From: an uncultured Gammaproteobacteria bacterium
GTDB taxonomy: Bacteria; Patescibacteriota; Patescibacteriia; SG8-24; DYFX01
Assembly: GCA_964404275.1 (NCBI GenBank)
Contig: CAYOJH010000004.1
Span: forward strand, 5,172-69,171
Direction of reading: 5' to 3'
Length of the DNA: 64,000 nt
Within the stretch, counting starts at the first letter, position 1. Each line of letters starts with the position of its first letter. Both the position numbers and the translations under genes were made by a program. Shown here in pieces: positions 4,847 through 42,294 of the stretch. The notes beneath the pieces are model-generated. The model did no database searches, was not told where the DNA came from, and saw only the letters and a list, made by a program, of their open reading frames with translations.

Positions 4847-5437
4847 ATGTCGGAGGCCAGGTTCCGCATCCCTTCTGCGATCATCAAAGCTTTGAAGAAG
4901 CACGAACAGGCTTCGGAGAAGCGGCGGAAACAGGCTACGGAAGCCGAGAGGCTCTACGAGCAGTACGTGCGTCCCTGCAGTTGCGCGGAGATCGATCAGA
5001 CATCGATACCGTACGCCAGGGATTTGATCGACTGGGTCAACGAATTCGAGGGCAGCTGCCTGCGCACGACGCTGCAGTACCAGCTCGGCGAAGCGGACGT
5101 GCCGATCTGCCGCAAGTCGGCCTCGCTCGAAGCGGAGGCCGACGGCAGCCGCATCGTGATCGAGATCGGCGGCGAGCTGCGGATCCGCATCCATCCGGAG
5201 GGCGGAAGGAACGGGATATATCGGTACGCCGAGATCTGCAACGGCGTGCTCATCCATCAGAATCTCAACCGCAACAACATCGATACCCCGTTCGTCCTGG
5301 CGATGCGCGTGCCGCCCGTGATTCTCAAGCAGATCCATCGGGAGGTCGTCGTGAATCAAGACGTCTGGCCCAGGATCGAGAGATGGGTGAAGACGAAAAG
5401 CGCGAAAATCCTCAGGAACACTCTGACCGGCGGCTGA
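4847..5437 (+). CDS. hypothetical protein, member 2 of the tandem paralog family
   Basis: clear similarity to 4138..4731 over most of its length. Confidence 0.55.
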   Translation: MSEARFRIPSAIIKALKKHEQASEKRRKQATEAERLYEQYVRPCSCAEIDQTSIPYARDLIDWVNEFEGSCLRTTLQYQLGEADVPICRKSASLEAEADGSRIVIEIGGELRIRIHPEGGRNGIYRYAEICNGVLIHQNLNRNNIDTPFVLAMRVPPVILKQIHREVVVNQDVWPRIERWVKTKSAKILRNTLTGG

Positions 5438-5534: not shown

Positions 5535-6104
5535 ATGATCCGTGATCTGCCCAAGCAAGTTCCCACCATCGTCCTCGCCGTCGCCGACCGCGTCATCAAG
5601 GAAAGGGAGCGGTTCGAAAACAACCGCTCCGTCGCCATCAGCGCCTTCCGTGCGCACGAGCTGCTGGACCGCGATCTGAGCGCGGAAACCACCGCCGAAC
5701 TCGAAACCCGGGCCGAAGCGATCTGTGACTGGGGCGTGAACGTCCGCGAGGCGCTGCCGATCGTGCGGCTCTACCGCTGGTTCAAAACGGACGCTCCGCC
5801 CGCGCTGACGGTCGTGAACCACCAGATCACGCTCAAGCCCGTCGGGTCGGCCCCCGGCGGCACGCTCAAGATGCGCTTGGATCTCGAGCTCGATCCCGAC
5901 CGCGACGTGCTCTTCCGCCACCACGAGTGGTTCGACGGATATCGCGTGGCGGGCGGCGGCGTCATGAACACCGGCACCTCGCTGCTCATGTCGCTGCACT
6001 CCGAGATGCTCCGTCAGGTCCACGACCTGATCGCCGAGAACCAGATCTGGGAACGCGCCACCAACGACTTCACGAGGCTCCTCGAGAGCTTCAAGGACAG
6101 GTAA
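5535..6104 (+). CDS. hypothetical protein, divergent member 3 of the tandem paralog family
   Basis: C-terminal region HSEMLRQVHDLIAENQIWER resembles HLQMLRPLHREVIEDAVCYRHIQKW of member 1. Confidence 0.45.
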   Translation: MIRDLPKQVPTIVLAVADRVIKERERFENNRSVAISAFRAHELLDRDLSAETTAELETRAEAICDWGVNVREALPIVRLYRWFKTDAPPALTVVNHQITLKPVGSAPGGTLKMRLDLELDPDRDVLFRHHEWFDGYRVAGGGVMNTGTSLLMSLHSEMLRQVHDLIAENQIWERATNDFTRLLESFKDR

Positions 6105-6121
6105 CGCCTGTCTTTTTTTGT

Positions 6122-6157
6122 TGACGCAAAAACTGACGGCCGTCAGTTTTTGCGTCA
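6122..6157. repeat. perfect 36-bp palindromic repeat TGACGCAAAAACTGACGGCCGTCAGTTTTTGCGTCA (copy 1 of 4)
   Basis: perfect inverted repeat; related copies at 13309, 40359, 40895. Confidence 0.8.
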
Positions 6158-6197: not shown

Positions 6198-7253
6198 ATG
6201 GAAGAAATCGTCGCCAAAGCGCCGCCCCGACCCGCACCGGCTGGTGCAGGTCCCCGCGACGTCGCGCCGACCGCCCAGCCGGCCGAACAGGCTTTCGACG
6301 CGCGCCTGCGCCCGAAACGGCTTTCGGAATTCGTCGGCCAGCAGAAGCTGAAGGATCATTTGGCCGTCTTCCTCGGCGCCGCCCAGAAGCGCGGCGAGCC
6401 GATCGAGCACACGCTGCTCTACGGCAACCCCGGTCTCGGCAAGACGACGCTCGCGCACATCATCGGCAACGAGATGGGCGTGAACGTCCGCACGACCTCC
6501 GGTCCGGCGCTCGAACGCGTCGGCGACCTGGCGGCGATCCTGACGAACCTCGAAGAAGGCGACATCCTGTTCATCGACGAAATCCACCGGCTCAACAAAT
6601 TGATCGAAGAGGTGCTCTATCCCGCCATGGAGGATTTCGCGCTCGATCTCGTGATCGGCAAAGGCCCGTCGGCGCGCACGCTGCGCATGGATCTCCCCCG
6701 CTTCACCATGATCGGCGCCACCACGCGCCTCTCGCTCCTGTCCGCGCCGCTGCGCGATCGCTTTGGCGTCACGTATCATCTCGATTTCTACGGCGCGGAC
6801 GATCTTCGGCTGATCGTCGAACGCAACGCCGGCGTGCTGGGCTGCGCGGTCCGTCCCGACGCGGCGCTGCGCATCGCCGAGCGCGCCCGCCGCACGCCGC
6901 GCGTCGCCAACCGCCTCCTGAAACGCGTGCGCGACTACGCGGACTTTCACGGGAATGGTACGATGACCGTGGATATCGTCGATCGCGCCCTCACCATGCT
7001 TGAGATCGACGCCGTCGGCCTCGATCAAGTCGACCGCCTGATCCTCGAAACGGTCATCTCGAAATTCGCCGGCGGACCGGTCGGCCTGAACGCGCTCGCC
7101 GCCGCCACTTCGGAAGAGATGGAAACGATCGAGACGATCTACGAACCGTATCTCATCCAGCTCGGCCTGCTGCATCGCACGCCACGCGGCCGCATGGCCA
7201 CCGACGCCGCCTACGTCCACCTCGGACTGACGGCGCCGCAGAAACTCCTATGA
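6198..7253 (+). CDS. ruvB: Holliday junction branch-migration helicase RuvB (with Ala/Pro-rich N-terminal extension)
   Basis: Walker [15 protein letters not shown], Walker [11 protein letters not shown], RuvB C-terminal winged helix. Confidence 0.9.
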
Positions 7254-11660: not shown

Positions 11661-12758
11661 ATGCCGTCCATCTTGTTTTTCTCGTTCCCCTACGCCTCTT
11701 CCCGCGGCGGCGGCGAGCGCTATACCGAGCAAACCGTCGAAGGACTTTTGCGCGCCGGAGGCGACGTGACGCTCGTCTCCTCTTCCGAGGCGCTGCTCTC
11801 CGCCTTCGTGTCCAAAAAATGGAAGGTTGTGCCGCTCTGGCTCGGCGTCGAGCCCGTCACGGCTTGGTCGGCGGCGATCTTTCCGCTCTTCGCCATCGTC
11901 GCCTGGCCGATTCTTTTTTTCCTGCTGGCCTGGTTCCGCTGGGCGAAAGGCGTGCGCACGATCGTCTGCCTTTCGATGATCGATAAGCTGCTCGCGACGC
12001 CGATCGCGCGACTCTTCGGCCTGCGCGTCGTCTGGATGGAGCATCTCGTGGCCGGGCGTTCGCTGCGTTTGAATCCGTTTCGTGGATTGTATGTTGCGCT
12101 GTCGAAACGCGTGCGCATCGTGACGGTCTCGGAAGCCGCCGCCGCTTCCTACGCCCAGCTCGGCGTGCCGCGCGATCGTATCGCCGTCATTTCTCCCGGC
12201 GTAGCATCGCTCGCCGCGCAGCCGCCGCGCCGCGCAGGACACGTCATCGGCGCGATCTCGCGTTTCAGCCGCGAAAAGAATGTCGCCTTGCTCCTCAAAG
12301 CCTTCGCGGAAGTTTTGAAATCCATCCCCGACGCGACGCTTGAAATCTACGGCGACGGTCCGGAACGCGCAGCCCTAAAAAAGCTGGCGCAGGATCTCGG
12401 AATCACCGAACAAGCGCATTTCCATGGATATGTAGAACGCATCGGCGATCGTTGCGCCTTCGATGTGCTGGCCGTGCCTTCCTCGCGCGAATCGTTCGGC
12501 ATGGCGGCACTCGAAACGATGCGCTGCGGAATCCCCGTCGTCGCCACGCGCGCGGGTGGGTTGCCGGAAGTCATCGCCGACGGCGAAACGGGAATCGTGG
12601 TTCCGCCTGATGACGCGGCGGCGATGTCGGAAGCGCTCGTCGCGCTCATGAAAGATCCCGCGCGCGCGGCGCACCTGGGCGCGGCCGGGCGCGAACGCGC
12701 GGCGCGCATGTTCAGCGAAGAAAAAATGCAACAGGCATGGACAACGCTCTTGTCGTAG
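11661..12758 (+). CDS. glycosyltransferase family 4 (GT-B, RfaG-like)
   Basis: C-terminal GT4 motifs (SxxESFGMAALETMRCGIPVVATRAGGLPEVI..GETG). Confidence 0.8.
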   Translation: MPSILFFSFPYASSRGGGERYTEQTVEGLLRAGGDVTLVSSSEALLSAFVSKKWKVVPLWLGVEPVTAWSAAIFPLFAIVAWPILFFLLAWFRWAKGVRTIVCLSMIDKLLATPIARLFGLRVVWMEHLVAGRSLRLNPFRGLYVALSKRVRIVTVSEAAAASYAQLGVPRDRIAVISPGVASLAAQPPRRAGHVIGAISRFSREKNVALLLKAFAEVLKSIPDATLEIYGDGPERAALKKLAQDLGITEQAHFHGYVERIGDRCAFDVLAVPSSRESFGMAALETMRCGIPVVATRAGGLPEVIADGETGIVVPPDDAAAMSEALVALMKDPARAAHLGAAGRERAARMFSEEKMQQAWTTLLS

Positions 12759-14014
12759 CGGTCATCGCCAGCGCGGCGCTCCTGCCATTCGAACGCCTCG
12801 GCGCCTTCACGCTCGCCGGCGTCAACATCCGGCCGAGCCAGATCGCGCTCGCGATCGCTTGGCTGCTTTGGATCAGGCTCTGGCTCCTCGGCCGGACGAA
12901 ACTCGCTTGGCGCCGTCCCTCCCTCCTCGCGCTGGCCGGTTTTTTCGCGGTCGCGGGCCTTTCGCTGTTGAACGCGGAAAATCTTCCGCGCTCCCTCGTC
13001 GTGCTCGGCTTCACGCTCTTCACCGCCTCGCTCGCGCTCTTGCTTCCCAACGTCATCAAAGACGAGCGCGCCTTCAAGCGCATCCGCGTCGCCATTGTGC
13101 TCTCCGCCGCGCTCGTCTCCTTGCTCGGCCTCTGGCAATTCGTGGCCGACATGCTCGGCGCGCCGCTTTGGATGACCGGATTGCGCGAGACCTATTCGCG
13201 CGCGATCCTCGGCTTCACGCGCGTGCAAGGCGCCTCGGCCGAGCCGCTCTATTTCGCCGACTACCTGCTGCTGCCCATCTCCTTGGTCGTCACCTGGTTG
13301 TTGCGCCATGACGCAAAAACTGACGGCCGTCGGTTTTTGCGCCCCGTGCAAATCCTGCTCGTCGCCATGTTGATTGACGTTTTCCTCACCGCTTCGCGCG
13401 GCGGCTGGCTCGGCCTCGGCGTGACACTCGTCGTGCTGTTGTGGTGCGAACGGAAGCGCTTGAAGGATTGGCGGCCGATCGCGCGGGCGGGCGGAATCGC
13501 CGTCGCGGCGCTCTCGCTTGGCGTGCTTCTGCTCGGAAGTTTCTTTTCTCCGACGCGCGAAACGGTGACGGATATTTTCTTCACCCACGTCACCAACATC
13601 ACGGGCGGCGCGGCGTATGACGACCGCGCGCAAACGATCTCCGCCGCGCTCGACGCCTGGCGCGCGCATCCTTGGATCGGCGTCGGCTTCGGCGGCTACG
13701 GCCCGTTCGTCTCGACCTTCGCCTTCGCCAAACCGGATGCAGGCTGGCCGATCGTGAATAATGAAACGTTGGAACTGCTCGCCGAAACGGGAGTATTTGG
13801 ACTTGTTGCCTTTCTGATCTTCCTCGTCACGCTTATGCATGAAACCAGCGGGCGGCGCAGGCGATATCCGCAGGAGGCAACACGCATCGCTTGCCTCGCG
13901 GCGCTGGCAGGCATGTTGGCGCAGTACCAGACCTTCTCAACCTTGTATATCATGCATGTGTGGTTTACGATCGGCCTGCTTTTAGCCGCGTCTGAGGCTG
14001 GAAAACCGGCTTGA
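12737..14014 (+). CDS. O-antigen ligase / Wzy_C-family membrane protein; carries an in-frame copy of the 36-bp palindromic repeat
   Basis: multi-TM, periplasmic loop with RGGWLGLG; repeat encodes HDAKTDGRRFLRP. Confidence 0.6.
   Translation: MDNALVVAVIASAALLPFERLGAFTLAGVNIRPSQIALAIAWLLWIRLWLLGRTKLAWRRPSLLALAGFFAVAGLSLLNAENLPRSLVVLGFTLFTASLALLLPNVIKDERAFKRIRVAIVLSAALVSLLGLWQFVADMLGAPLWMTGLRETYSRAILGFTRVQGASAEPLYFADYLLLPISLVVTWLLRHDAKTDGRRFLRPVQILLVAMLIDVFLTASRGGWLGLGVTLVVLLWCERKRLKDWRPIARAGGIAVAALSLGVLLLGSFFSPTRETVTDIFFTHVTNITGGAAYDDRAQTISAALDAWRAHPWIGVGFGGYGPFVSTFAFAKPDAGWPIVNNETLELLAETGVFGLVAFLIFLVTLMHETSGRRRRYPQEATRIACLAALAGMLAQYQTFSTLYIMHVWFTIGLLLAASEAGKPA
13309..13342. repeat. copy 2 of the palindromic repeat (slightly degenerate) located inside a CDS, in frame
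   Basis: TGACGCAAAAACTGACGGCCGTCGGTTTTTGCGC. Confidence 0.75.
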
Positions 14015-14309: not shown

Positions 14310-14732
14310 ATGACCCGCAGGCTCAATATTGATCATGTCCGTTTCTTGGCGCACGAGCTCGCGCAACGGCTCATGGAGTGGGGTGAACCCATTCCGCCGT
14401 TTGAAACACGTTATCCGGAAAAGCTGGAATCCTGCCTAACGACGCCGTTCGCGACATATGACAAGAAGGAACTCTACCCGACGCTTGAAGAAAAATCCGC
14501 GATCCTGTTCTATTTGATGATCAAAAATCACCCTTTCAAAAACGGGAATAAAAGGGTGGCAGTGACAACTCTTCTTGTTTTTCTCTCCGCCAACGGAAAA
14601 TGGATGAAAGTCGATGAGCAGCAGCTCTATTCTTTCGCCAAGTGGGTGGCGGAGAGCTTGCCGAGTTTGAAAGACGCGACAGTCTTCGCCGTTATTGACT
14701 TCTTAAAAAAACAGATCGTAAACGCTGCATGA
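14310..14732 (+). CDS. Doc/Fic-family toxin (death-on-curing-like)
   Basis: Doc-type motif HPFKNGNKRVAVT; ~140 aa; low GC relative to flanks. Confidence 0.7.
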   Translation: MTRRLNIDHVRFLAHELAQRLMEWGEPIPPFETRYPEKLESCLTTPFATYDKKELYPTLEEKSAILFYLMIKNHPFKNGNKRVAVTTLLVFLSANGKWMKVDEQQLYSFAKWVAESLPSLKDATVFAVIDFLKKQIVNAA

Positions 14733-15940
14733 CCCTCCTCACCGTCGCCTTCATCGCTTTCGCGCTCCTCGCCTGGAAAAATCTCCGCGCGGCTTTTTTG
14801 CTGTTCGTGGCCGCGCTGCCCACCTACGTGATTCGTTTCCAGGTCGGCCCCTTGCCGACGACGGCGCTCGAAATCCTGTTCGCGATCCTCTTCGCCGCCT
14901 GGATGCTGAAGCGCGAGAAACGCCTGATCGACATCAAAGGCTGGGGCTGGCTGCTGCTCGCCTGGATCGCCGTCGCGACGGTTTCGCTCTTCGTCTCCCC
15001 CGATTTTCGCGCGGCGGCCGGCGTCTGGAAAGCCTATTTCATCGAGCCTATCCTCTTCTTCCTGATCGCCAACGACCTGCTACGCACGCAAGCGGACCGC
15101 GAGGCGGCCGTGCATTCGCTGGCCTGGTCGGCGATCGCGATTTCGATTCCAGCCATCCTCCAGCATTGGACGAACTGGGGCGTGCCGCCTCCCTGGAACC
15201 TGCCGGGACAGGAGCGTTCGACCTCGATCTACGGCTATCCGAACGCGACGGGTTTGTTCCTGGCGCCGATCGTTCCGCTGTTTTTCAAAAAGAAACCGCT
15301 GCACCTTATCGCGCTCGCCTGCTCGCTGGCCGCGATCGTGTTGGTGCAATCCGAAGGCGCGATCGTCGGCCTGATCGCCGCGACCGGCGTCTTCCTGCTG
15401 TGCTTCAAAGAGACGCGCAAGCGCGCGCTCGCCGTCGGCGCGATCCTGGCCGTCGTGATTTTTGCCGTTCCCGCTACCCGCGCGGTCGCGATCGAAAAAC
15501 TCACGCTGAACGATTGGTCCGGCCGCGTGCGCAAAGAGATGTGGGGCGAAACCATGAACATGCTGAAAGATCACGCCGTGTTCGGCGCGGGCCTCTCCGG
15601 CTACCCGATCGTCTTCAACCCCTATCACAAAGCGCGGCACATCGAGATCTTCCAATATCCGCATGACATTCTCTTGAACTTCTGGGTCGAGACCGGCTTA
15701 GCCGGCGTGCTCGTGTTCTTCCTTCTGGTCGGACAGGATCTTCAAACCATCCGCAGTCTCATGAAGCGCGATCCTCGCCTGCGCGCCTGGTGCGCGATGC
15801 TCTTCGCTTCGATGACGGCGCTGCTCGTCCACGGCCTGGTCGACGTCCCCTATTTCAAAAACGATCTCTCGATGCTGTTCTGGCTCTTGCTCGCCTTCGC
15901 CGCCTCGAGCTTGGCCGAAACGAAAACGCCGCCCCGTTAG
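14729..15940 (+). CDS. O-antigen ligase / polymerase-family (Wzy_C-like) membrane protein
   Basis: multi-TM with large periplasmic loop; second paralog in the locus. Confidence 0.6.
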   Translation: MTLLTVAFIAFALLAWKNLRAAFLLFVAALPTYVIRFQVGPLPTTALEILFAILFAAWMLKREKRLIDIKGWGWLLLAWIAVATVSLFVSPDFRAAAGVWKAYFIEPILFFLIANDLLRTQADREAAVHSLAWSAIAISIPAILQHWTNWGVPPPWNLPGQERSTSIYGYPNATGLFLAPIVPLFFKKKPLHLIALACSLAAIVLVQSEGAIVGLIAATGVFLLCFKETRKRALAVGAILAVVIFAVPATRAVAIEKLTLNDWSGRVRKEMWGETMNMLKDHAVFGAGLSGYPIVFNPYHKARHIEIFQYPHDILLNFWVETGLAGVLVFFLLVGQDLQTIRSLMKRDPRLRAWCAMLFASMTALLVHGLVDVPYFKNDLSMLFWLLLAFAASSLAETKTPPR

Positions 15941-20343: not shown

Positions 20344-20359
20344 CAACTCTCCGCATCCA

Positions 20360-20456
20360 CAACTCCCCCTGCCCCCTCTTTAGCAAAGAGGGGGTTTTGG
20401 TTAAAAAATGTCCTCCCCTTTGCTAAAGGGGAGGTGCCGAAGGCGGAGGGGTTGTG
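20360..20456. repeat. ~100-bp double-hairpin repeat element, copy 1 (upstream flank of pilin array)
   Basis: CAACTCCCCCTGCCCCCTCTTTAGCAAAGAGGGGG...CCTCCCCTTTGCTAAAGGGGAGGTGCCGAAGGCGGAGGGGTTGTG; near-identical to 25732..25830. Confidence 0.85.
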
Positions 20457-20472
20457 TTACACTATTTTCACT

Positions 20473-21106: not shown

Positions 21107-22117
21107 ATGAAACGCCTTTCCGTATGTATCGCCGCGATCGTCTTCGGACTTTCTTTGGCGCCGGCGGCCTTCGCCCTCACTCTCCCTTGCTATTGCAAAT
21201 ACGGGGCGAGCAAGGCCGGCTGGGATTCGGATTCGGCGCGTTTCTGCCCGAATGAAACGTATTTCTCGGGTACCGTCGATGCCGGCACGTTCCCGCTCTC
21301 CTATGGCAGCACGGCTGACGACAACTGCCAGGCGCGTTGCGCCTCGGAGGGATCCGCCTTTGTCGATATTACGACCGTTTCTCCGAGTCAGTGGGCTTCC
21401 TTCGGGAGTTCAGACAACCTGGTGCTGGCGGAAAAAAGCTACTGCGTGCTCCGCTCGGACAGCGCCGCGACGGTCCAAGGCTGGTCTTCCAGCTACTTGA
21501 GCTGCAAAAAACCGCTCAACAGCATCGTCTATAAGGACAATCCGACCGGCCAGGTTCCGGACAGCTGCTCGTATTGCTTCTGCAAGTTCAAGACGGGCGG
21601 CTCGACGCCCTCGAGCTGCAGCGGAAAAACGACGATGGTCCACATCACCGGCGACGCGAGCACGTGTTCGAACATCTGCACGAGCTTCGGCCTCGACAAC
21701 GGCGACAGCACGAAAGACTACGGCAGCCATTGCGATTTCCAGCTTTCCGACCAGTGCGCGAAGCCGCTTAACCCCGACGGGAGCGGCTGCCAGTCCGAGC
21801 TCGGGGCCATTTCCGATCAGAAGAAAGCCGACGCCTTCCAGGCCAGCCATGGCACCGCGCTCGGTTTGACGCTGCCGCTCGGCGACATCACCTTTCCGCA
21901 GCTGATCGGCCGCGTCATCAAGCAGCTGCTCGGCATCGTCGGCGCCTTGGCGCTCGTCTTCTTCATCTGGGGCGGCCTCAAATACATGACGGCCCAAGGC
22001 GACGACAAGAAAATCAAAGAGGCGCGCGACATGATCGTCGCCGCCATTTCCGGCTTGGCCGCGATCTTCCTGTCCTACGCGCTCCTGACACTGCTCATCA
22101 ATACGCTGTCGAAATAG
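21107..22117 (+). CDS. VirB2/TrbC-like pilin paralog 2 with large N-terminal Cys-rich domain
   Basis: signal peptide, ~20 Cys, C-terminal core LLGIVGALALVFFIWGGLKYMTAQGDDKKIKEARDMIVAAISGLAAIFLSYALL. Confidence 0.65.
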   Translation: MKRLSVCIAAIVFGLSLAPAAFALTLPCYCKYGASKAGWDSDSARFCPNETYFSGTVDAGTFPLSYGSTADDNCQARCASEGSAFVDITTVSPSQWASFGSSDNLVLAEKSYCVLRSDSAATVQGWSSSYLSCKKPLNSIVYKDNPTGQVPDSCSYCFCKFKTGGSTPSSCSGKTTMVHITGDASTCSNICTSFGLDNGDSTKDYGSHCDFQLSDQCAKPLNPDGSGCQSELGAISDQKKADAFQASHGTALGLTLPLGDITFPQLIGRVIKQLLGIVGALALVFFIWGGLKYMTAQGDDKKIKEARDMIVAAISGLAAIFLSYALLTLLINTLSK

Positions 22118-22118
22118 T

Positions 22119-22487
22119 ATGAAACGCAAGATTGCCCGCCTTCTCTCGACGCTCGTCATCTTCGCCGCAAGCGCGTCCGGAGCCTTGGCCGATACCGGTT
22201 CAAGTGCCACGAGTTCCTCCGACAAGACCGTCAGATTGGTGAATCCGCTTAACGTTTCGACGGTGCCCCAGCTCGTGGCCAACCTGCTCAAGGCCGCCAT
22301 GGGGATCATCGGCGCCTTGGCACTCTTGGTCTTCATCTACGGGGGATTCATTTGGTTGACCTCGGGAGGCGAGGCTGGTAAAATTCAGGCAGGCAAAGAC
22401 GCCATGAAGTGGGCGGCGATCGGACTCGTCGTGATCTTCACCAGTTACGCGCTCGTCAGTTTCGTGTTCAAAGCGATAACGGGCTAA
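22119..22487 (+). CDS. VirB2/TrbC-like pilin paralog 3
   Basis: signal peptide + core GIIGALALLVFIYGGFIWLTSGGEAGKIQAGKDAMKWAAIGLVVIFTSYALV. Confidence 0.65.
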   Translation: MKRKIARLLSTLVIFAASASGALADTGSSATSSSDKTVRLVNPLNVSTVPQLVANLLKAAMGIIGALALLVFIYGGFIWLTSGGEAGKIQAGKDAMKWAAIGLVVIFTSYALVSFVFKAITG

Positions 22488-22509
22488 CGCCTGAAAGGAG
22501 GTGAGTTGC

Positions 22510-22899
22510 ATGACGAAAAAAACGCTTATCAAGGGTCTGATCAGCACGGCAATGGTTGCGACAATGGCGCTCCCCATGGTCGCTTTGGCTCAAAACCCCG
22601 TGACGTCCAACGAACTTCTGCCCGGCCAGATCGCCACCGAGCTCGGCCAGCAGCAGCAGGACCTGCGCATCACCATCGCGAGAATCATCCGCACGGCCAT
22701 GAGCCTTCTGGGCATCGTCGCCGTTCTGATCATTCTGTACGGCGGCTTCAAGTGGATGACCTCCGGCGGATCCGACGAAGCCACGGGCGACGCGAAGAAG
22801 ATCATTACGGCCGGCGTGATCGGTCTCGTGATCATTCTGACCGCGTACGCGATCGCTTCCTTCGTGATCAACAGCCTCGTAACCGCGACCTCCCAGTAA
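22510..22899 (+). CDS. VirB2/TrbC-like pilin paralog 4
   Basis: RBS AAAGGAGGTGA 8 nt upstream; core LLGIVAVLIILYGGFKWMTSGGSDEATGDAKKIITAGVIGLVIILTAYAIA. Confidence 0.65.
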   Translation: MTKKTLIKGLISTAMVATMALPMVALAQNPVTSNELLPGQIATELGQQQQDLRITIARIIRTAMSLLGIVAVLIILYGGFKWMTSGGSDEATGDAKKIITAGVIGLVIILTAYAIASFVINSLVTATSQ

Positions 22900-22910
22900 C
22901 GCATCTTTAC

Positions 22911-22982
22911 GCGACCCTGCACCGTATGGTGCAGGGTCGTCGCAAGGACTCGGGAAATGCCCTGCACCGTACGGTGCAGGGC
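22911..22982 (+). repeat. two tandem hairpins CCCTGCACC-N4/5-GGTGCAGGG between pilin paralogs 4 and 5, no T-tract
   Basis: same hairpin family as 3903 and 44355. Confidence 0.6.
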
Positions 22983-23013
22983 GCCTCCGGACTCCTTGAA
23001 CCTCGAACCACGT

Positions 23014-23514
23014 ATGCGCTTGAAACGCATTCTCCTCCCCGCGCTCTGCCTGGCGGCGACCGCCCTGATGGCGATCCCGCTCGCCCACGCAGCCAGCGAC
23101 CATTTCGGACTCGACACCGCCGCCGGCGGCGCCGGCCTCAAGAATCTGGACTTGCCGACGACGATCGGCGTCCTGATCAAGAGCGTGCTCAGCTTCCTCG
23201 GCATCCTCTTCCTGGTACTCACGCTCTACGCCGGCTTCCTCTACATGACGGCCCAAGGCGACGAGAAGAAGGTCGCCAAGGCCAAGAGCATCGTGACCGG
23301 CGCGGTCATCGGCCTGGTCATCATCGCCGCCTCCTACGCGATCACGAGCTTCGTCCTCGGCGCGATCACCGGCACCGCGAGCACGTCCAACACCTCGAAC
23401 ACTTCCAATACGTCGACGATCGGCACGGTCCAGAAAGGCGGCGCGTGCACGAGCGGAAGCGATTGCGCCGCCGGCCTGATCTGCGACATCGGAGGATCCA
23501 ATACCTGCATCTGA
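23014..23514 (+). CDS. VirB2/TrbC-like pilin paralog 5 with C-terminal (TSN)n repeat and Cys-containing tail
   Basis: core FLGILFLVLTLYAGFLYMTAQGDEKKVAKAKSIVTGAVIGLVIIAASYAIT. Confidence 0.65.
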   Translation: MRLKRILLPALCLAATALMAIPLAHAASDHFGLDTAAGGAGLKNLDLPTTIGVLIKSVLSFLGILFLVLTLYAGFLYMTAQGDEKKVAKAKSIVTGAVIGLVIIAASYAITSFVLGAITGTASTSNTSNTSNTSTIGTVQKGGACTSGSDCAAGLICDIGGSNTCI

Positions 23515-23515
23515 T

Positions 23516-23854
23516 ATGCGCACTCTCCACAAACTCGCCCAGGACTTCGGAGCCGGAAATCTCAAAACCGTCGGCGATACGGCCAAGATCACCTCGAACG
23601 TCACGCTGCCCGTCCTGATCGGCAACCTGATCCGCACGTTCATCGGGCTCCTCGGCATCATCTTCCTCCTGCTCACGGTCTACGCCGGTTTCCTCTGGCT
23701 GACGGCCCAAGGCGACGAGAAGAAGGTCGAGCATGCCAAAGGCCTGCTCAAGAACGCCGTGATCGGCCTCGTGATCATCGCCGCCGCCTACGCCATCTCC
23801 GCCTTCGTCGTCAACGCGCTCGCCCACGTGGCCGGCGGCACGAATCCCACCTAA
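23516..23854 (+). CDS. VirB2/TrbC-like pilin paralog 6
   Basis: core FIGLLGIIFLLLTVYAGFLWLTAQGDEKKVEHAKGLLKNAVIGLVIIAAAYAIS. Confidence 0.65.
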   Translation: MRTLHKLAQDFGAGNLKTVGDTAKITSNVTLPVLIGNLIRTFIGLLGIIFLLLTVYAGFLWLTAQGDEKKVEHAKGLLKNAVIGLVIIAAAYAISAFVVNALAHVAGGTNPT

Positions 23855-23876
23855 CCTCGCTCATCATTTACCTTCT

Positions 23877-24299
23877 ATGGCGAAAAAAATCCTTCTGGGG
23901 CTGCTCTCGCTCCTGACCGTCGGCCAAATGGCCTTGGCCGCGCTGCCCGCCGGCGCGCAGGCTCCCTGCGATCCTTCGACCGGCAACTCGCTCGGCTGTC
24001 TCAGCGCCGCGAATCCCAGCAACACGCCGACCGACGCGGTCACGGCCGGCCAGCAGCTGCCGCTCCTGATCGGACGCCTCATCCGCACGATGCTCGGTCT
24101 CCTCGGCATCATCTTCCTGGTCCTGATGGTCTACGCCGGCTTCCTCTGGATGACGGCCCGCGGCGATGACGAACCCGTCACGAAAGCCAAAGACATCATC
24201 CGCCAGGCGATCATCGGCCTCATCATCGTCTTCGTCGCCTACGCCTTGACCGGCTTCATCATCAACGCGGTGCTCCGCGCCACCTCGGGAACGCCATAA
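23877..24299 (+). CDS. VirB2/TrbC-like pilin paralog 7
   Basis: signal peptide; core MLGLLGIIFLVLMVYAGFLWMTARGDDEPVTKAKDIIRQAIIGLIIVFVAYALT. Confidence 0.65.
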   Translation: MAKKILLGLLSLLTVGQMALAALPAGAQAPCDPSTGNSLGCLSAANPSNTPTDAVTAGQQLPLLIGRLIRTMLGLLGIIFLVLMVYAGFLWMTARGDDEPVTKAKDIIRQAIIGLIIVFVAYALTGFIINAVLRATSGTP

Positions 24300-25701: not shown

Positions 25702-25731
25702 CTTGGACAGGCGGAACGTCTCCGCGGCCAA

Positions 25732-25830
25732 CAACTCCCCCTGCCCCCTCTTTAGCAAAGAGGGGGTTTTTAAATGTCCTCCCCTTTGCTAAAGGGGAGG
25801 TGCCCGAAGGGCGGAGGGGTTGTGGCCGCG
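25732..25830. repeat. ~100-bp double-hairpin repeat element, copy 2 (downstream flank of pilin array), direct orientation
   Basis: near-identical to 20360..20456. Confidence 0.85.
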
Positions 25831-34930: not shown

Positions 34931-34988
34931 ACAGGTAAAGTATATCGCTAGGCCGTTCCTTTGACAAAGACGCACGAGGGCTTGGGTT

Positions 34989-35160
34989 ATGTCATCCCTG
35001 CGAAAGCAGGGATCCAGTACCGCCAGAAGTCGTTATTGAACTGGATTCCAGCTTGCGCTGGAATGACAAGGGGGCGTGCGTCGAGCCGTGCATGTCATCC
35101 CTGCGAAAGCAGGGGGCAGCACTTACACATGTCATCCCTGCGAAAGCAGGGATCCAGTAC
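34989..35160. repeat. cluster of four REP-like hairpin repeats (TGTCATCCCTGCGAAAGCAGGGATCCAGTAC and variant GGATTCCAGCTTGCGCTGGAATGACA)
   Basis: copies at 34989-35019, 35038-35070, 35093-35119, 35129-35160; family also at 748-775, 35451-35482, 42264-42289, 17197-17268. Confidence 0.75.
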
Positions 35161-35163
35161 CTA

Positions 35164-35448
35164 TCAAAAATTATAGGATAGATCCTTCCAATCCGGATTT
35201 TCCCTCTCGATCAATTGGATTTTCCAATCACGTTTCCAAGCCTTCAGCTGTTTCTCGCGCTGAATGGCAGAAAACACATCGCTTGTTTCTTCAAAATAAA
35301 CGAGTGTCTTTAAACCATACGTTCGCGTGAACCCCGCCACCACTCCGGCCCGATGTTCCGTGATCCGTCGCAAGAGATCGTTTGTCACACCAATGTACAG
35401 TGCTCCACCGAGCCGATTTGTCAGAATATACACGTAGTACGTGCGCAT
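35164..35448 (-). CDS. GIY-YIG nuclease-domain protein (~94 aa)
   Basis: YYVYILTNRLGGALYIGVTNDLLRRITEH...REKQLKAW; bracketed by REP-like repeats. Confidence 0.75.
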   Translation of the reverse strand: MRTYYVYILTNRLGGALYIGVTNDLLRRITEHRAGVVAGFTRTYGLKTLVYFEETSDVFSAIQREKQLKAWKRDWKIQLIERENPDWKDLSYNF

Positions 35449-35450
35449 AG

Positions 35451-35482
35451 GTACTGGATTCCAGCTTGCGCTGGAATGACAT
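35451..35482. repeat. REP-like repeat (CCAGCTTGCGCTGG variant) abutting the GIY-YIG start
   Basis: GTACTGGATTCCAGCTTGCGCTGGAATGACAT. Confidence 0.7.
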
Positions 35483-35509: not shown

Positions 35510-36529
35510 TCAAAGCGCCGGCAGGTCGAATTGGGGGCCGAGGTCGGCGCGTTCGACGGTCCAGCCGTTCGGATGTTCGACGATCGCGCCGTCGACGGTG
35601 AAGCCCGCGGCTTTGCGATGACCTCCCCCGCCGTAGGTCTTGGCCATTTCGGCCACGTCGGCATCGGTCGCGCTGCGGTAACTGCCTTTGACCCGATGGC
35701 GGCCCAGCTCTTTCAGCACCAGCACCACGTCGGCTTGCAGCAGATGATTCAAAAAGTTCGAGAGGCCTTCCAGATATTCGTCGTCGACCGGATGATCGTT
35801 GAAGTCGCTGCGGAAGAGCGCGGTCGAAGCGAGTTTCTTTTCGGGATCGAAACGTAGACGCTCGAGCGCGCGGCCCCAGAGCTTGAGCGCGTCGACCGGC
35901 TTGTTGCGCATCAGGCGCTTGGTGATATCGCGAATCGAGACGCCTTTGAGCAAAAGCTCGGAAGCGATCTCCAAGCTCTTCACCGTCGTGGCGGGGTTAG
36001 AAAAATTCGACGTGTCGGTCAGGAGGCCGGTCATGAGGCAGACCGCCATCTCGCGCGAGACGTCCGCGCCGTTGTCGTCGAAAAATTCATGCACGACTTC
36101 GGCCGTCGAGGAGGCGTCGGTGATGACGAGGTTCGCGTCGCCGAAGAGCGCGTTGGTGACGTGATGATCGAAGTTCGCGATGAACGGTTTCTTCGGCATG
36201 GCGGCCACGAGCGCGTCGATACCGGCGTAGGCCAAGTCGCCCGCGTCGAACACGCACAGCGCGTCGACGGCTTCGTCCTTGAAAATCGCCGTGACATTCG
36301 TCACCTCCTTGAAACGCGGAAAGTACGCGTAGGCCGAGGCCGGCTCGTCGATGCAGAACGCATGGGCTTCGCGGCCCTGATCGCGCAGCCAATTGTAGAC
36401 CGCCATCATGCCGCCGAGCGTGTCGCCGTCGGGCTTGCGGTGCGAAACCAGAATCGGCTTCCGCGCGTGGGAAAGCTTTTCGAAGATGCGTTTTGACGTC
36501 GCGAGATGCGGCATAAGGTCAAAGTCCAT
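35510..36529 (-). CDS. DHH-family phosphoesterase (NrnA-like oligoribonuclease/pAp phosphatase), canonical motifs
   Basis: DxD (HRKPDGDTLGG) and DHH (NFDHHVTN) motifs, DHHA1-like C-terminus with GGGH. Confidence 0.75.
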   Translation of the reverse strand: MDFDLMPHLATSKRIFEKLSHARKPILVSHRKPDGDTLGGMMAVYNWLRDQGREAHAFCIDEPASAYAYFPRFKEVTNVTAIFKDEAVDALCVFDAGDLAYAGIDALVAAMPKKPFIANFDHHVTNALFGDANLVITDASSTAEVVHEFFDDNGADVSREMAVCLMTGLLTDTSNFSNPATTVKSLEIASELLLKGVSIRDITKRLMRNKPVDALKLWGRALERLRFDPEKKLASTALFRSDFNDHPVDDEYLEGLSNFLNHLLQADVVLVLKELGRHRVKGSYRSATDADVAEMAKTYGGGGHRKAAGFTVDGAIVEHPNGWTVERADLGPQFDLPAL

Positions 36530-36571
36530 CACCGTACGGAAAAAGAAAAACCCCGTCAAGAGACGACGGGG

Positions 36572-37255
36572 TTACGAATCGACGACGCGGATGCGGACGG
36601 GGCCGCGGCCGGCGCCGAAGATGTCATGCGGAAAGCGCGCGCTGATCTGCATCGGCCTGACCCGCAGCGTGACGCCGCAGTCGAAGAAGCGCTGCCACAC
36701 GCGGCTGACGAAGGCGATGTCGACCTCCGTCAGCGTCATGACGTCGCGGGCGCTTTTCTTCGGCATCGACGGAACGCCGTTCGCGATCGCATCCGCCAAG
36801 GCATAGGCGATGTCCGACGGGCGGCCTTGCGCGTCGAGCAGGCTGCGCGTGACGGTGAGCTCGGGCGTCGGGTCGAGCTCGCGAAGATCCGTCCCGTCGG
36901 TCGTGCGATAGCCTTCGACCGTCTTCATGAGCGACAGGTCGCCGAAGGGATGGAAGCTGATCGCGTACGGCCAGGCTTCCAGCACGCACCAATGATCCGC
37001 CACGTCGATCTGCGATTTGAGATCGACCATGGCCGTCTTCAGCACGAGCTCGGCGTCGGCGTCGAAAAACGGCAGACGCACGTCCTCGCACGGCAGGCTG
37101 GAGGCCAGGCGCGCGTCAGGATGCGCGCGGCGGATCGCGTCGGCCGCCGCGCGCAGCATCCGGAAACCGGTGTCGAGCACGTCGTGGAACTGGAACTGCG
37201 GCCCGTCGCCCACGACGACGTCGGGCAGCTTCGTCGGAGTGATGAAGCGGATCAT
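36572..37255 (-). CDS. hypothetical protein, tandem paralog B1
   Basis: similar to 37252..37893 (DLDPTPE, RFPHxxFGxGxGP motifs). Confidence 0.5.
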   Translation of the reverse strand: MIRFITPTKLPDVVVGDGPQFQFHDVLDTGFRMLRAAADAIRRAHPDARLASSLPCEDVRLPFFDADAELVLKTAMVDLKSQIDVADHWCVLEAWPYAISFHPFGDLSLMKTVEGYRTTDGTDLRELDPTPELTVTRSLLDAQGRPSDIAYALADAIANGVPSMPKKSARDVMTLTEVDIAFVSRVWQRFFDCGVTLRVRPMQISARFPHDIFGAGRGPVRIRVVDS

Positions 37256-37893
37256 GGCTCCCCCTCGCCGTCCCGAAGGATCTTGTGTAGGTATCGGCAG
37301 ATGCGCATGGGGCCCGCGCCGAGGCCGAAGGCCGCGTGCGGAAAGCGCACCTGGATCGCCAGGTCGTCGACGCCGGAATCGTAGAGATCCCAGGTGATGC
37401 CCTGCGGCAGGAATCCGTCGAGCGCCTTGCTCAGGAATTCGTGGTGCGTCTCTTCGATCGGATCGATCATGCCGCGGCGCATCATCACGATCATGACCGG
37501 CGTCGGGTCGAGATCGCTCCAGTCGAGGTCGTGATCCGTCAGGCAGTTCTTGACCGAACCGTGCAGGCAGTCGAAGCCGAGCAGGTAGAGGTCCGCCATG
37601 AACGGCCCGAAGCGCACTTCGCAGCTGAAGAGCGTCACGTCGTATTTCGTGAGCTTGCATTCGTCGAAGACGTAGGCGATCTGGGCGTAGCTCTCCTCGT
37701 CGAAGGCCCGCTCCGCGTCATCGAAGGCGAAGGAAAACGTGGGCGGGTCGGACTTGGGGAAGCGCATCATGGCGCGACCGAGCAGCGTCCGGAGGATCCC
37801 CAGCGCCGTCTCGGTCACCTTGGTCAGGTCGAATTTCGGCCCGTCCGCGATGAGCGTGTCGTCGTCGAGTTCTCGGAGCTTGGTCAGCGTCAC
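37252..37893 (-). CDS. hypothetical protein, tandem paralog B2 (GTG start, RBS AAGGAGG), translationally coupled to B1 (ATGA overlap)
   Basis: paralogy across full length; listed 980-aa ORF is an extension antisense to smc. Confidence 0.5.
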   Translation of the reverse strand: MTLTKLRELDDDTLIADGPKFDLTKVTETALGILRTLLGRAMMRFPKSDPPTFSFAFDDAERAFDEESYAQIAYVFDECKLTKYDVTLFSCEVRFGPFMADLYLLGFDCLHGSVKNCLTDHDLDWSDLDPTPVMIVMMRRGMIDPIEETHHEFLSKALDGFLPQGITWDLYDSGVDDLAIQVRFPHAAFGLGAGPMRICRYLHKILRDGEGEP

Positions 37894-37992
37894 GGTCTCC
37901 TCCTTGAAAGGAACCGTTTCCAGCTTCCCCTCCGCCGCTTGAAACGTCAAGCGTTCCCAGGTACTTTGTTGAGGTAATAGCCGACGTTCCAC

Positions 37993-40302
37993 ATGTATCT
38001 CCAGCGCATCGAAATGCAGGGTTTCAAGTCGTTCGCCAACCGCACCGTCTTGGAATTCCTTCCACCGAAAGACGGCAACCGCGGCACGACCGCGATCGTC
38101 GGCCCGAATGGCTCGGGCAAGTCCAACATCGCCGACGCGGTCCGCTGGGTGCTCGGCGAGCAATCGCTCAAGCTCCTGCGCGGCAAGAAATCGGAAGACG
38201 TGATCTTCAGCGGCTCGGAAAAGCGCTCGCGCTCCGGCTTCGCCGAAGTCTCCCTCTCGCTGAACAACGAAGCGGGCGGCAACGACATCGAATATCCGGA
38301 AGTCGTGATCACGCGCCGCATCTACCGCGACGGCGAATCGGAATACCTGATCAACAAGAACAAGGTCCGGCTCCAGGAGGTCCTCTTGCTGCTCGCCCGC
38401 GCCAACTTCGGCCAGCGCACCTACTCGGTGATCGGCCAAGGCATGATCGACGCGATCCTGGTCGCCTCGCCGAAAGAGCGTAAAGAATTTTTCGACGAAG
38501 CCGCCGGCGTCAAACAGTATCAGCTCAAGCGCGAATCCGCCGTCCGCAAGCTCGACGCCTCCGAAGAAAATTTGAAACAGGCCGAACTCATCCTCGCCGA
38601 GATCGAACCGCGCATGCGTTCGCTCTCGCGCCAGGTGCGCCGCTTGGAGGAACGCGCCAATCTGGAAAAAGAATTGCAGGAGCTTTCCGTTTTGTATTTC
38701 AGCACGCAGTGGAAGCAGATCAAGCAAGAAATGGCCGCGATCGACGTGAAAACGAAAACGGTTGAAGAGAGCCGCAAAGCCAAGGAAAAGGAGATCGAAG
38801 CCGTGCGCGCCCAGCTCGCGGGGCTCGAAACGGAAGAAACGAAATCCGACGGCCTGATCGCGCTCCAGAAGGAGTACGAAAAGGAAATGGAGAAGCGCAA
38901 CGCGCTGCGCGAAAAAGAGATCCAGCTCAAGAACCAGATCCGGATGGAGCAGATGAAAGCCCAGGCGGCGGGCGCGCCGGCCTTGCCCCTGCCGCTCCCC
39001 CGCATCGTCGAAGAGGTCTCGGCGATTTCCGAGCGCCACGACGAGCTGGTCGCTTCGATCTTGAACGCGGAAACGCTCGAACAGGCGCAGCAGGCCGCGC
39101 AGGAACTCGAAAAGCTCGGCAAGCAGATCAACGAACTGCTTTCGGAACTCAAAGAGCCCGGCCATAAAGACCGGCACCAGAAAAAAGAGCCGTCCGTTCC
39201 GCCCGCGATGCAGAAAGAACTCGAGGAAACGCTCGTCGCCATCGCCTCGATGGGCAAAGCGCTGACCGAGCTCCAAGGCCGGATGCAGCGCTGGGGCCAG
39301 GAAGAATCCAAGAAACGCGGCGCTTTCTTCGAGATCCAGCGCAAGATGCAGGCGCTCCAAAGCGAGCTTTTCGAGCTCGACCGCCATCTCTCCGACCACC
39401 GCGTCGAGCGCGCCCGCATCGAAACGCGCCGCGAAACCGTCGAACGCGAAGCCAAGGAAATGATGGGCGAGGCCGCCATGGCCGCGCTGTCGGCCGAACC
39501 GAAAGAGAAGGTCGACGCGCTCGCGCTCTCTCCCCGCCTCCACCAGCTGCGCACGCAAGTCGCCGCGATCGGCTCGATCGACCAAGCCGTCGTCAACGAA
39601 TACAAGGAGATCAAGGAACGCTTCGATTTCCTCTCGAACCAGGTCGAGGATCTGCACAAGACGAAGACTTCGCTCGTGCAGATGATCGAAGAACTCGACG
39701 GGCTGATCAAGAAGCAATCGGACGTCTCCTTCCGCCGCATCAACCAGCACTTCGGAGAATTCTTCAAGCAGCTGTTCGACGGCGGCAGCGCTTCGCTCCA
39801 GAAGATCGAGCGCGAAGAGGAAGAAGACGAAGCCGCCGAAGCGGAAAAGGCCGCGGCCAATGAAGCCGCCGGCATCGAGGAAGAAGAAAAGAAAGAAGAC
39901 GTTTCCGCCGCGCCGAAAGAAACCTGGCTCGGACTCGAAATCTTCGCGAATCCTCCGGGCAAGCGCGTGAAGTCGATTCACACGCTCTCGGGCGGCGAGC
40001 GCGCCATGACCTCGATCGCGCTCATCTGCGCCATCATGACGACCAACCCGTCGCCCTTCGTGGTCCTCGACGAAGTCGACGCCGCCCTCGACGAATCCAA
40101 CGCCTCGCGCTTCGCCAAAATCATCGACGAACTCTCCCACAAGACGCAGTTCCTGGTGATCACGCACAACCGCTACACGATGCAGAAGTCGCAAGTCCTC
40201 TACGGCGTGACGATGGGCGAAGATTCCACCTCCAGCATCCTCTCGCTCCAGCTCGAAGACGCGGAAAACCTGAAAGGCAACACGAAAAAAATCGCGGTAT
40301 AA
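37993..40302 (+). CDS. smc: SMC-family chromosome segregation ATPase, unusually short (769 aa), apparently hinge-less
   Basis: N-terminal MYLQRIEMQGFKSF...GPNGSGKSN Walker A, C-terminal signature LSGGERAMTSIAL and Walker B VVLDEVDAALD; long coiled coil between. Confidence 0.8.
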   Translation: MYLQRIEMQGFKSFANRTVLEFLPPKDGNRGTTAIVGPNGSGKSNIADAVRWVLGEQSLKLLRGKKSEDVIFSGSEKRSRSGFAEVSLSLNNEAGGNDIEYPEVVITRRIYRDGESEYLINKNKVRLQEVLLLLARANFGQRTYSVIGQGMIDAILVASPKERKEFFDEAAGVKQYQLKRESAVRKLDASEENLKQAELILAEIEPRMRSLSRQVRRLEERANLEKELQELSVLYFSTQWKQIKQEMAAIDVKTKTVEESRKAKEKEIEAVRAQLAGLETEETKSDGLIALQKEYEKEMEKRNALREKEIQLKNQIRMEQMKAQAAGAPALPLPLPRIVEEVSAISERHDELVASILNAETLEQAQQAAQELEKLGKQINELLSELKEPGHKDRHQKKEPSVPPAMQKELEETLVAIASMGKALTELQGRMQRWGQEESKKRGAFFEIQRKMQALQSELFELDRHLSDHRVERARIETRRETVEREAKEMMGEAAMAALSAEPKEKVDALALSPRLHQLRTQVAAIGSIDQAVVNEYKEIKERFDFLSNQVEDLHKTKTSLVQMIEELDGLIKKQSDVSFRRINQHFGEFFKQLFDGGSASLQKIEREEEEDEAAEAEKAAANEAAGIEEEEKKEDVSAAPKETWLGLEIFANPPGKRVKSIHTLSGGERAMTSIALICAIMTTNPSPFVVLDEVDAALDESNASRFAKIIDELSHKTQFLVITHNRYTMQKSQVLYGVTMGEDSTSSILSLQLEDAENLKGNTKKIAV

Positions 40303-40303
40303 A

Positions 40304-40338
40304 AAGAGACGGCCCTACGGGGGTCGTCTTTTCGTTTC
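40304..40338 (+). terminator. Rho-independent terminator after smc
   Basis: agacggccctacgggggtcgtct + T-run. Confidence 0.6.
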
Positions 40339-40358
40339 ATGTCTTGGTCAAAAACACG

Positions 40359-40394
40359 TGACGTAAATTCTGACGGCCGTCAGTTTTTGCGTCA
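40359..40394. repeat. palindromic repeat copy 3 (TGACGTAAATTCTGACGGCCGTCAGTTTTTGCGTCA)
   Basis: right arm identical to copy 1, left arm variant. Confidence 0.75.
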
Positions 40395-40790: not shown

Positions 40791-40894
40791 CCCTTGCGAA
40801 ATGGCGACTCTGGGATATCGCCGCGTGCCATAGAGGAACAGCTTTCCGTCCGAGGCCGCCTGCAGCAAAGCCCCGGTCAGCCATTTGGCGACGG

Positions 40895-40930
40895 GGCGCG
40901 AATTCTGACGGCCGTCAGTTTTTGCGTCAC
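40895..40930. repeat. palindromic repeat copy 4 (GCGCGAATTCTGACGGCCGTCAGTTTTTGCGTCA), direct with copy 3
   Basis: identical 29-bp core to copy 3. Confidence 0.75.
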
Positions 40931-40987
40931 GGGCGCGCATATGCCACCGCCTACGCGAAGTCGTGCTTCGCTGTCAATAAAAAACGA

Positions 40988-41020
40988 CGACCTCAAGGGG
41001 TCGTCTTTTCGTTCTGAGAT
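40988..41020. terminator. bidirectional terminator
   Basis: aaaaacgacgacctcaaggggtcgtcttttcg. Confidence 0.55.
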
Positions 41021-42289: not shown

Positions 42290-42294
42290 AAAAA

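Follow-up and report, generated by a model that had tools for sequence, protein, structure and literature searches.

A lineage-specific palindrome brackets PaaX_M/Cas2-like genes and is translated in frame within a Wzy_C protein loop

Results

We analyzed a 64,000-nt stretch of contig CAYOJH010000004.1 (assembly GCA_964404275.1, positions 5,172 to 69,171, forward strand) from a member of the Patescibacteria, or candidate phyla radiation (CPR), with a GC content of ∼61%. We call this stretch the window, and counts of repeat copies refer to it alone. The 36-nt palindrome TGACGCAAAAACTGACGGCCGTCAGTTTTTGCGTCA occurs there four times. Copy 1 (6122–6157), a perfect palindrome, is intergenic. Copy 2 (13309–13344, plus strand) is identical to copy 1 at 33 of 36 positions and lies in frame inside a gene for a Wzy_C, or O-antigen-ligase-family, membrane protein (12737–14014, plus strand). 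Copy 3 (40359–40394) and copy 4 (40894–40929), both on the minus strand, sit at the 3′ and 5′ ends, respectively, of one small gene (40392–40940, minus strand) that encodes a 182-aa PaaX_M/Cas2-like protein in which a winged-helix part is predicted. An initial annotation had recognized a palindromic repeat family at these four sites. Its sites were right, and two of its boundaries needed correction: The ligase copy ends at 13344, not 13342, and the fourth copy occupies 40894–40929, not 40895–40930. What it had overlooked is the tie between the repeat family and the regulator-like gene at 40392–40940.

The repeat family is real by comparison with shuffled sequence. Full-length matches with at most three mismatches occur three times in the window and in none of 100 dinucleotide shuffles, and a scan for the 18-nt half-site recovers seven arms against a shuffle mean of 0.01. 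Copies 2 and 3 each differ from the perfect palindrome at three positions. In copy 4, the right, proximal arm (40912–40929) is perfect; the left, distal arm has five mismatches, and its T-tract is gone (AATTC within GAATTC). Folded as single-stranded DNA, the four copies have energies of −17.6, −12.4, −9.1, and −7.7 kcal/mol. The lowest value belongs to copy 1 (z = −6.95), which pairs along all 36 nt except a 4-nt apex. The exact core CTGACGGCCGTCRGTTTTTGCG has no match in the genome, metagenome, and viral contig collections, and Rfam at gathering thresholds finds only four tRNAs in the window. The peptides LTQKLTAV.. and DGRQ.., earlier noted as shared among shadow open reading frames (ORFs), do recur in overlapping ORFs around 40337–41183. 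They sit in noncoding frames over the real PaaX_M-like gene and are shared simply because the copies share the same DNA.

The bracketed gene encodes the protein that we propose as the cognate binder of the palindrome. This protein matches PF20803 (PaaX_M) with E = 1.8e-12 and 47.6 bits against a cut-off of 24; Pfam describes PaaX_M as the Cas2-like central domain of PaaX. Its C-terminal domain also passes the NCBIfam cas2 equivalog cut-off (27.4 vs. 24.5 bits), which is why annotation pipelines name its relatives “CRISPR-associated endonuclease Cas2,” and the Cas2-type FDIPE motif is conserved. The AlphaFold model (mean predicted local distance difference test score, 90.6) has two long helices and a beta-hairpin wing (residues 79–92) toward the N terminus, then a ferredoxin-like C-terminal domain; the palindrome-encoded residues 1–14 are disordered. 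The best match in the PDB is the Escherichia coli repressor PaaX (8a39; E = 2e-4, TM score 0.37 over 144 columns), followed by Cas2 and VapD structures that match the C-terminal domain. At 182 aa, the protein is too short to hold the PaaX_C domain. Its family comprises 3798 clusters at E ≤ 1e-3 in a library clustered at 50% identity.

The two copies at this gene fit its ends closely. The first three minus-strand bases of copy 3, TGA, are the stop codon, and the copy is followed by CGTGTTTTTG. Copy 4 covers codons 4–16 and contributes 12 residues. The two copies share a 29-nt exact match and are in direct, not inverted, orientation. An alternative start that would place copy 4 outside the coding sequence (CDS) was rejected, both because the next in-frame ATG, GTG, or TTG comes no earlier than codon 25 and because residues 18–30 are conserved with P0122, the closest homolog (52% identity), which is encoded on locus L081. 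Eight nucleotides upstream of the ATG lies a promoter-like element read from the sequence, TTGACA-N17-GTAGGC (40949–40977, minus strand); a scan with the sigma-70 consensus gave no match at this position. The pattern TTGAC[AG]-N17-[GAC]TAGG[CG] recurs 7–10 nt before the ATG in L081, L119, L117, and L118, with a variant in L116. This spacing suggests that the mRNA is leaderless or nearly so, which would place copy 4 at about +10 to +45. A CRISPR array was considered and rejected: An array would have at least three direct repeats at regular spacers of 25–40 nt, beside a cas1 gene. There are just two repeats here, ∼535 nt apart with a gene between them, and no array-like tandem structure is present in the window.

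The surroundings of the gene are partly shared with L081. Genes for a DHH phosphoesterase, a hypothetical-protein family, and an SMC-like protein adjoin one another in the window (35510–40940) and in L081 (1201–7438). The SMC-like protein of the window (37993–40302) has 769 aa, with SMC_N spanning residues 2–747 and no match to a hinge domain; its L081 homolog has 774 aa. The PaaX_M cassette lies between the DHH and hypothetical genes in L081 and beyond the SMC gene in the window. Its different slot in a shared neighborhood implies that the cassette has moved locally.

The same layout recurs across the protein family. We surveyed ∼15 lineages, four of which were ascertained through the DNA motif itself, and scored the start region of each locus against its stop region without gaps, using 300 shuffles as the null. 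The bracket is clear, with no shuffle scoring as high, in 8 of the 11 protein-ascertained loci (L081, L119, L120, L117, L121, L122, L123, and L124). In L081, a perfect 40-nt palindrome, AAGCAAGCAAAAACCGACGATCGTCGGTTTTTGCTTGCTT, overlaps the stop codon of P0122, and a one-armed copy lies in codons 3–9. The two ends share 43 of 44 nt in L120 and carry identical 43-nt palindromes in L122, and the motif of L117 is ATTCTCGCGGCCGCGAGAAT. The L123 bracket lies at 5152–5190 and 5768–5806, and that of L124 at about 5294–5337 and 5940–5985. A search with the degenerate core AAAAACNGACGNNCGTCNGTTTTT alone returned 32 metagenome loci, the informative ones being L088, L112, L105 (with L098), and L113 (with L114). 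In these four motif-found loci (GC 30–37%), a PaaX_M-like gene lies directly beside the palindrome, and a second copy stands at the other end of the gene in L088, L112, and L113, where both gene ends are on the contig.

The bracket is conserved, and the sequence of the palindrome covaries with the protein: The palindromes are lineage-specific, 30–48 nt long, and spread over genomes of 30–66% GC. The 5′ copy starts 1–16 nt into the CDS in high-GC lineages and lies 66–86 nt upstream in lineages with GC ≤0.51. Two paralogs within a single Sungbacteria genome (L123 and L124; GCA_016196115.1) have the common centre CACGATCGTG and different outer arms, AGTATACAAATTG and TATATCCCATTTC. Such paralog-specific arms would be expected of cognate protein–site pairs. 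A mobile cassette excised between direct repeats is an unlikely explanation, because the 5′ copy of the high-GC lineages lies downstream of the ATG, so excision would cut off the promoter and start. We found no description of the bracket layout in the literature searched, which covered PaaX with Cas2-like proteins and PaaX in CPR.

The 5′ copies are informative about what is being conserved. They retain one arm, the centre, and the bases at the outer ends, and have lost the potential to form a hairpin. That the sequence is kept when the fold is lost favors recognition of double-stranded DNA by a protein over folding. This observation bears on a rival explanation, in which the palindromes would have a role in RNA or transcription only, as bidirectional intrinsic terminators or mRNA-stabilizing hairpins, the copies being kept similar by gene conversion and the ligase copy being accidental and at most attenuating. 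Several observations speak for it. The inner hairpin CTGACGGCCGTCAG followed by TTTTT is terminator-like by scan, this combination passes a lax terminator scan in copies 3 and 4, and the 3′ copies stand exactly where a terminator is expected. Moreover, in the CDS-internal 5′ copies the distal T-tract has become purine-rich: It reads AATTC in the window (40894–40929), AAGAGAAT in L081 (5745–5790), and AGAAAAAG in L119 (about 317–352). Losing the T-tract may prevent early termination within the CDS of the gene itself, which fits a terminator role. Several features argue the other way. The inner stem is just 5 bp, and in the brackets of L122, L117, and L123 no T-tract follows the hairpin. Copy 1 directly follows the separate, canonical terminator of the upstream gene (6093–6115). 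A lineage-specific sequence shared by the two gene ends throughout one family, over GC contents of 30–66%, would be surprising for terminators, as would paralog-specific outer arms. The 5′ copies retain their sequence without its fold. We consider a role confined to RNA or transcription improbable.

Copy 1 ends 40 nt 5′ of the ATG of ruvB (6198–7253, plus strand; Pfam RuvB_N, E = 7.7e-77). The ruvB gene is a possible target of regulation through copy 1.

Copy 2 lies in an intact host gene. ORF 12737–14014 matches PF04932 (Wzy_C) with E = 2e-19 and 70.3 bits against a cut-off of 31.7, has 373 homologs at E ≤ 1e-10, and scores far below the NCBIfam equivalog cut-offs for RfaL and IctB. As the initial annotation stated, the repeat is read in frame. 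Its codons, caT GAC GCA AAA ACT GAC GGC CGT CGG TTT TTG CGC CCC, encode H191-DAKTDGRRFLRP-203 with neither a stop nor a frameshift. The protein has 12 predicted transmembrane (TM) segments, and residues 191–203 form the TM6–TM7 loop plus the start of TM7. In the AlphaFold model (predicted TM score 0.87), helices at 174–190 and 198–218 enclose a loop at 191–197; the repeat-encoded residues are the seven-residue connecting loop and the first turn of the following helix. The suggestion that the repeat marks a loop region is thus borne out by the model. The alternative suggestion of a pseudogenizing insertion is not supported: The CDS is full length, it retains every one of the 83 alignment columns without variation among 48 orthologs, and it gives a model of good quality. 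Nor does the loop appear to be periplasmic, a location that had been considered. The hydropathy profile has 12 hydrophobic segments and a large loop (274–344) on the side opposite the TM6–TM7 loop, and the short lysine- and arginine-rich loops are all on the same side as the TM6–TM7 loop. By hydropathy and the positive-inside rule, the TM6–TM7 loop is probably cytoplasmic.

The neighborhood of the host gene is as follows. A Fic/DOC-family gene (14310–14732) stands between two Wzy_C paralogs (12737–14014 and 14729–15940), downstream of a GT4 glycosyltransferase.

Comparison with orthologs indicates how the loop changed. All 47 of the 47 aligned orthologs (46–73% identity) are at least 4 aa shorter at the loop, so the net change is +4 aa (+12 nt), rather than the +12 aa (+36 nt) expected of a simple insertion. 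In a neighbor-joining tree, the window ligase is nested, sister to P0002–P0011, with more distant short-loop sequences outside. Because it is nested among short-loop sequences, the long loop is a derived, lineage-specific state. The sister clade encodes x-[DE]-A-K-T-[RK]-R-W-L-S at the same spot, and outgroup homologs (46–54% identity) share this short loop, in which they carry D-[RA]-K-T. None of the orthologs has palindromic DNA at the loop; L003, for example, reads CCTGAGGCAAAAACGCGCCGCTGGCTTTCA. Among orthologs, third positions within the DAKT codons are freely variable, so their match of 10–11 of 12 nt to the first 12 nt of the palindrome is what the amino acids alone would lead one to expect. 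No target-site duplication is present at the site of the ligase event. The event is best described from these alignments as a derived replacement of a preexisting look-alike loop by the palindrome.

One could instead suppose an ancient insertion in the ancestor of the ortholog clade, of which DAKTRRWL would be a decayed remnant, intact today only in the window lineage. The ortholog DAKT..RRWL does resemble the palindrome-encoded DAKTDGRRFL, and in L001 and L003, 11 of 12 positions agree with TGACGCAAAAAC. Against such a history, the outgroups already have the short loop, the window ligase is nested in the tree and not basal, and the DNA match equals the amino-acid expectation. Furthermore, 1.29 Mb of ligase-containing loci from related Patescibacteria contain no real-looking half-site of the palindrome at up to four mismatches. 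We regard an ancient insertion as very unlikely.

The source of the ligase copy can be narrowed down further. In the coding sense, copy 2 most resembles copy 4 (32 of 36 identical positions). The two share the derived ending GCGCCC in place of GCGTCA, the next three bases, cgt, and the reading frame, and they yield the peptides HDAKTDGRRFLRPV (copy 2) and a 14-residue counterpart (copy 4). This bears on convergence, which would have been indicated by orthologs with the same peptide and no palindromic DNA. Sister orthologs do encode xDAKTRRWLS without palindromic DNA, but convergence itself is excluded by the 33/36 identity at the DNA level and by the derived bases and frame in common with copy 4. 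The source is a metagenome-assembled contig, so an assembly or chimeric-read artefact was also considered. The ligase copy carries three substitutions of its own and is therefore not a collapsed duplicate of another copy. On either side it adjoins sequence colinear with the orthologs, and it leaves the reading frame undisturbed; a 33/36 match, for its part, cannot arise by chance. Artefact or chance is scarcely credible here.

Palindromes of the same type also occur alone in coding sequence elsewhere. CTCCAAAAACAGACGGCCGTCTGTTTTTGGAG lies in frame in a ComEC-like gene in L097 (8969–8992) and L109 (11748–11771), the latter on a contig that ends near the copy. It falls in the linker between the DUF4131 and Competence domains and encodes SKNRRPSVFG. 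The region of the copy is identical at 60 of 60 nt between the two orthologs, which are 78% identical in protein.

The window contains other repeats and a gene array in addition to this family. A second, unrelated palindromic family, ATGTCATCCCTGCGAAAGCAGGGATCCAG, has at least five copies (716–775, 34958–35017, 35098–35157, 35447–35482, and 42255–42292). A composite repeat, ACAACTCCCCCTGCCCCCTCTTTAGCAAAGAGGGGGTTTT followed by CCTCCCCTTTGCTAAAGGGGAGGTGCC..GGGCGGAGGGGTTGTGG, has three copies (20359–20464, 25731–25830, and 47477–47529), each with small hairpins. Five T4SS_pilin (PF18895) paralogs stand in tandem at 21107–24299.

Discussion

Our analysis leads us to favor, with modest confidence, the view that the palindrome is the regulator's own DNA site, used for autoregulation, and that the copies upstream of ruvB and in the ligase gene are secondary sites. 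From the sequence evidence we infer both DNA binding by the 40392–40940 protein and autoregulation. In outline, the gene of each family member would be bracketed by one copy at the promoter or first codons and another at the stop codon or directly behind it. Repression of the leaderless transcript would come from a dimer or tetramer of the encoded protein that engages the two sites together, and in some lineages the 3′ copy may also serve as a terminator hairpin. In the window genome, the site would have spread to the ruvB promoter region, where copy 1 would act as a secondary operator, and to the Wzy_C gene. Regulation of ruvB or of the glycan gene cluster is conceivable. As a candidate site, the ligase copy appears at least as good as the autoregulatory 5′ copy.

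The ligase copy may have arisen by nonreciprocal copying of ∼45 nt, through ectopic gene conversion or template switching, from the 5′ coding copy of the regulator. Copying could have been seeded by the preexisting match of 10–11 of 12 nt, the ancestral loop having encoded DAKT as GAnGCnAAAACn and TGAGGCAAAAACGCGCC being the ancestral look-alike. Both the mechanism and its direction are suggested by two shared substitutions, a short shared flank, and the frame. The copy would have survived because a short, positively charged cytoplasmic loop gave way to a nearly equivalent peptide and because the palindrome is open in two of its three reading frames. An A-to-G change, by which CAG (Q) of the palindrome became CGG (R), brings back the ancestral RR and may reflect a later adjustment at the protein level.

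A number of observations weigh against the operator interpretation. A site of 36–48 bp is long for a single dimer operator, and operators are not usually placed at the 3′ end of a gene. The core, with A5, a hairpin, and T5, resembles a bidirectional terminator. Most of the 32 core matches are ordinary intergenic hairpins from unrelated organisms, many of them at gene ends, a pattern that would equally suit a role in RNA. Pfam finds neither PF07848, the N-terminal winged helix of PaaX, nor PaaX_C in the 40392–40940 protein. The bracket is marginal in L118 (22 of 300 shuffles), and L115 and L116 show a loose resemblance by eye only. Finally, there are no solo copies within ∼10 kb on either side of the gene in L081, L121, L122, and L123. 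Spread beyond the bracket may therefore be peculiar to the window genome.

The last of these points also bears on selfish mobility. The palindrome could be a repeat akin to repetitive extragenic palindromic (REP) sequences or miniature inverted-repeat transposable elements (MITEs), mobilized in trans. The bracketed gene would then correspond to the REP-associated tyrosine transposase (RAYT) of a REPtron, with transposition accounting for the ligase and ruvB copies. A palindrome of 20–40 bp with copies flanking a gene fits this picture, as do the solo copies at two unrelated loci and the different slot that the PaaX cassette occupies in L081 and in the window. In-frame intragenic REPs and Rickettsia palindromic elements (RPEs) are documented (PMC3733652). 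Against mobility of this kind, the bracketed protein has the PaaX/Cas2 fold and not that of an HUH Y1 transposase, the stems are perfect to their ends with no unpaired GTAG/CGTC tag, and there are only four copies in 64 kb. The gene lacks solo copies nearby in the four loci just named, the ligase event added a net 12 nt at a look-alike site without target-site duplication, and the exact core was not found in the collections searched. We judge a selfish repeat of this type to be unlikely.

A bolder extension of the operator interpretation is a long shot. The PaaX_M/Cas2-like proteins and their bracket palindromes might be self-propagating, homing-like protein–site pairs, in which the protein, by means of its FDIPE motif, would nick or cleave look-alike sequences, and repair from a true copy would make a full site. 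Sites would in this way enter promoters and coding loops, such as those of ruvB, Wzy_C, and the ComEC linker of L097 and L109, and so recruit genes to the regulator. In a weaker form, binding of the 36-nt palindromic direct repeat by a Cas2-fold protein might be akin to the relationship between Cas2 and the CRISPR repeat.

The significance of these findings lies in the gene more than in the ligase copy. In-frame translated palindromic repeats are already known, and the ligase copy on its own is a modest curiosity. The family of ∼180-aa proteins, by comparison, is largely from CPR, very large (the 3798 clusters above), and routinely misnamed Cas2. If these proteins bind the sites that bracket their genes, they would provide ready-made regulator–operator pairs in organisms where almost no regulation is understood. 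Small regulons would then be predictable from sequence, here ruvB and a cell-envelope glycan cluster, and the window would document how microhomology can carry a copy of an operator into a coding loop.

It is useful to set the system against known ones. RPEs, reported by Ogata et al. in 2000, are said to be inserted in frame in functional genes. Like them and like intragenic REPs, the window palindrome is translated in frame in a loop or linker of an apparently functional protein and has intergenic copies as well. RPEs are about 100–150 bp long with tens of copies, whereas the window unit has 36 nt, is low in copy number, and is tied to a regulator-like gene. Unlike an RPE, the ligase copy is a net +12-nt replacement and not a clean insertion, and part of its peptide preexists in orthologs. 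Intragenic REPs have been described in frame in genes (Di Nocera et al. 2013; PMC3733652), where REPs are defined by an unpaired GTAG or CGTC tag and an imperfect stem–loop with a stem of 5–13 bp and a loop of 2–20 nt. Stems of tagged REPs measure 8–13 bp. Membership among the CGTC-tagged REPs was rejected: In copy 1, CGTC is present only within the stem, no unpaired tag exists, and the stems are too long. The layout is reminiscent of REPtrons, in which a RAYT gene is flanked by REPs, in that a small gene is bracketed by a palindrome also found elsewhere in the genome. Membership there was likewise rejected, as the flanked gene matches PaaX_M and Cas2 only and has no HUH Y1 domain; the copies are, in addition, in direct orientation, and the 5′ copy covers the promoter or first codons.

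Two further comparisons concern gene ends and sites within genes. Like bidirectional intrinsic terminators, the palindrome has an A-tract, a GC-rich hairpin, and a T-tract, and its 3′ copy stands at a gene end. Unlike them, it keeps its sequence at both ends of one gene and lacks a T-tract in some lineages. Of the window copies, one sits in a promoter region behind a separate terminator and another inside a CDS. An example of an intragenic site for a chromosome-organizing protein is parS, 16 bp long and bound by ParB, which is present inside spo0J. It resembles the present case in that a palindromic site is tolerated in coding sequence within or next to its binder's gene. However, parS is conserved across phyla, whereas the window sites are lineage-specific and their binder is a proposed one.

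Another parallel is PaaX itself (8a39), the repressor of phenylacetate catabolism, to which the predicted fold is nearest; the window gene has a palindromic site at roughly +10 to +45 of its own predicted promoter. The differences are the lack of PaaX_C and of a Pfam match to the N-terminal winged helix, a site of 36–48 bp rather than the ∼15 bp of PaaX, and a whole-gene bracket conserved throughout a family that is largely from CPR and annotated as Cas2. Autoregulated repressors may also have auxiliary operators inside or beyond a gene, as with lac O2 and gal OI. In the same manner, the second site of the bracket, ∼540 bp away, could allow looping.

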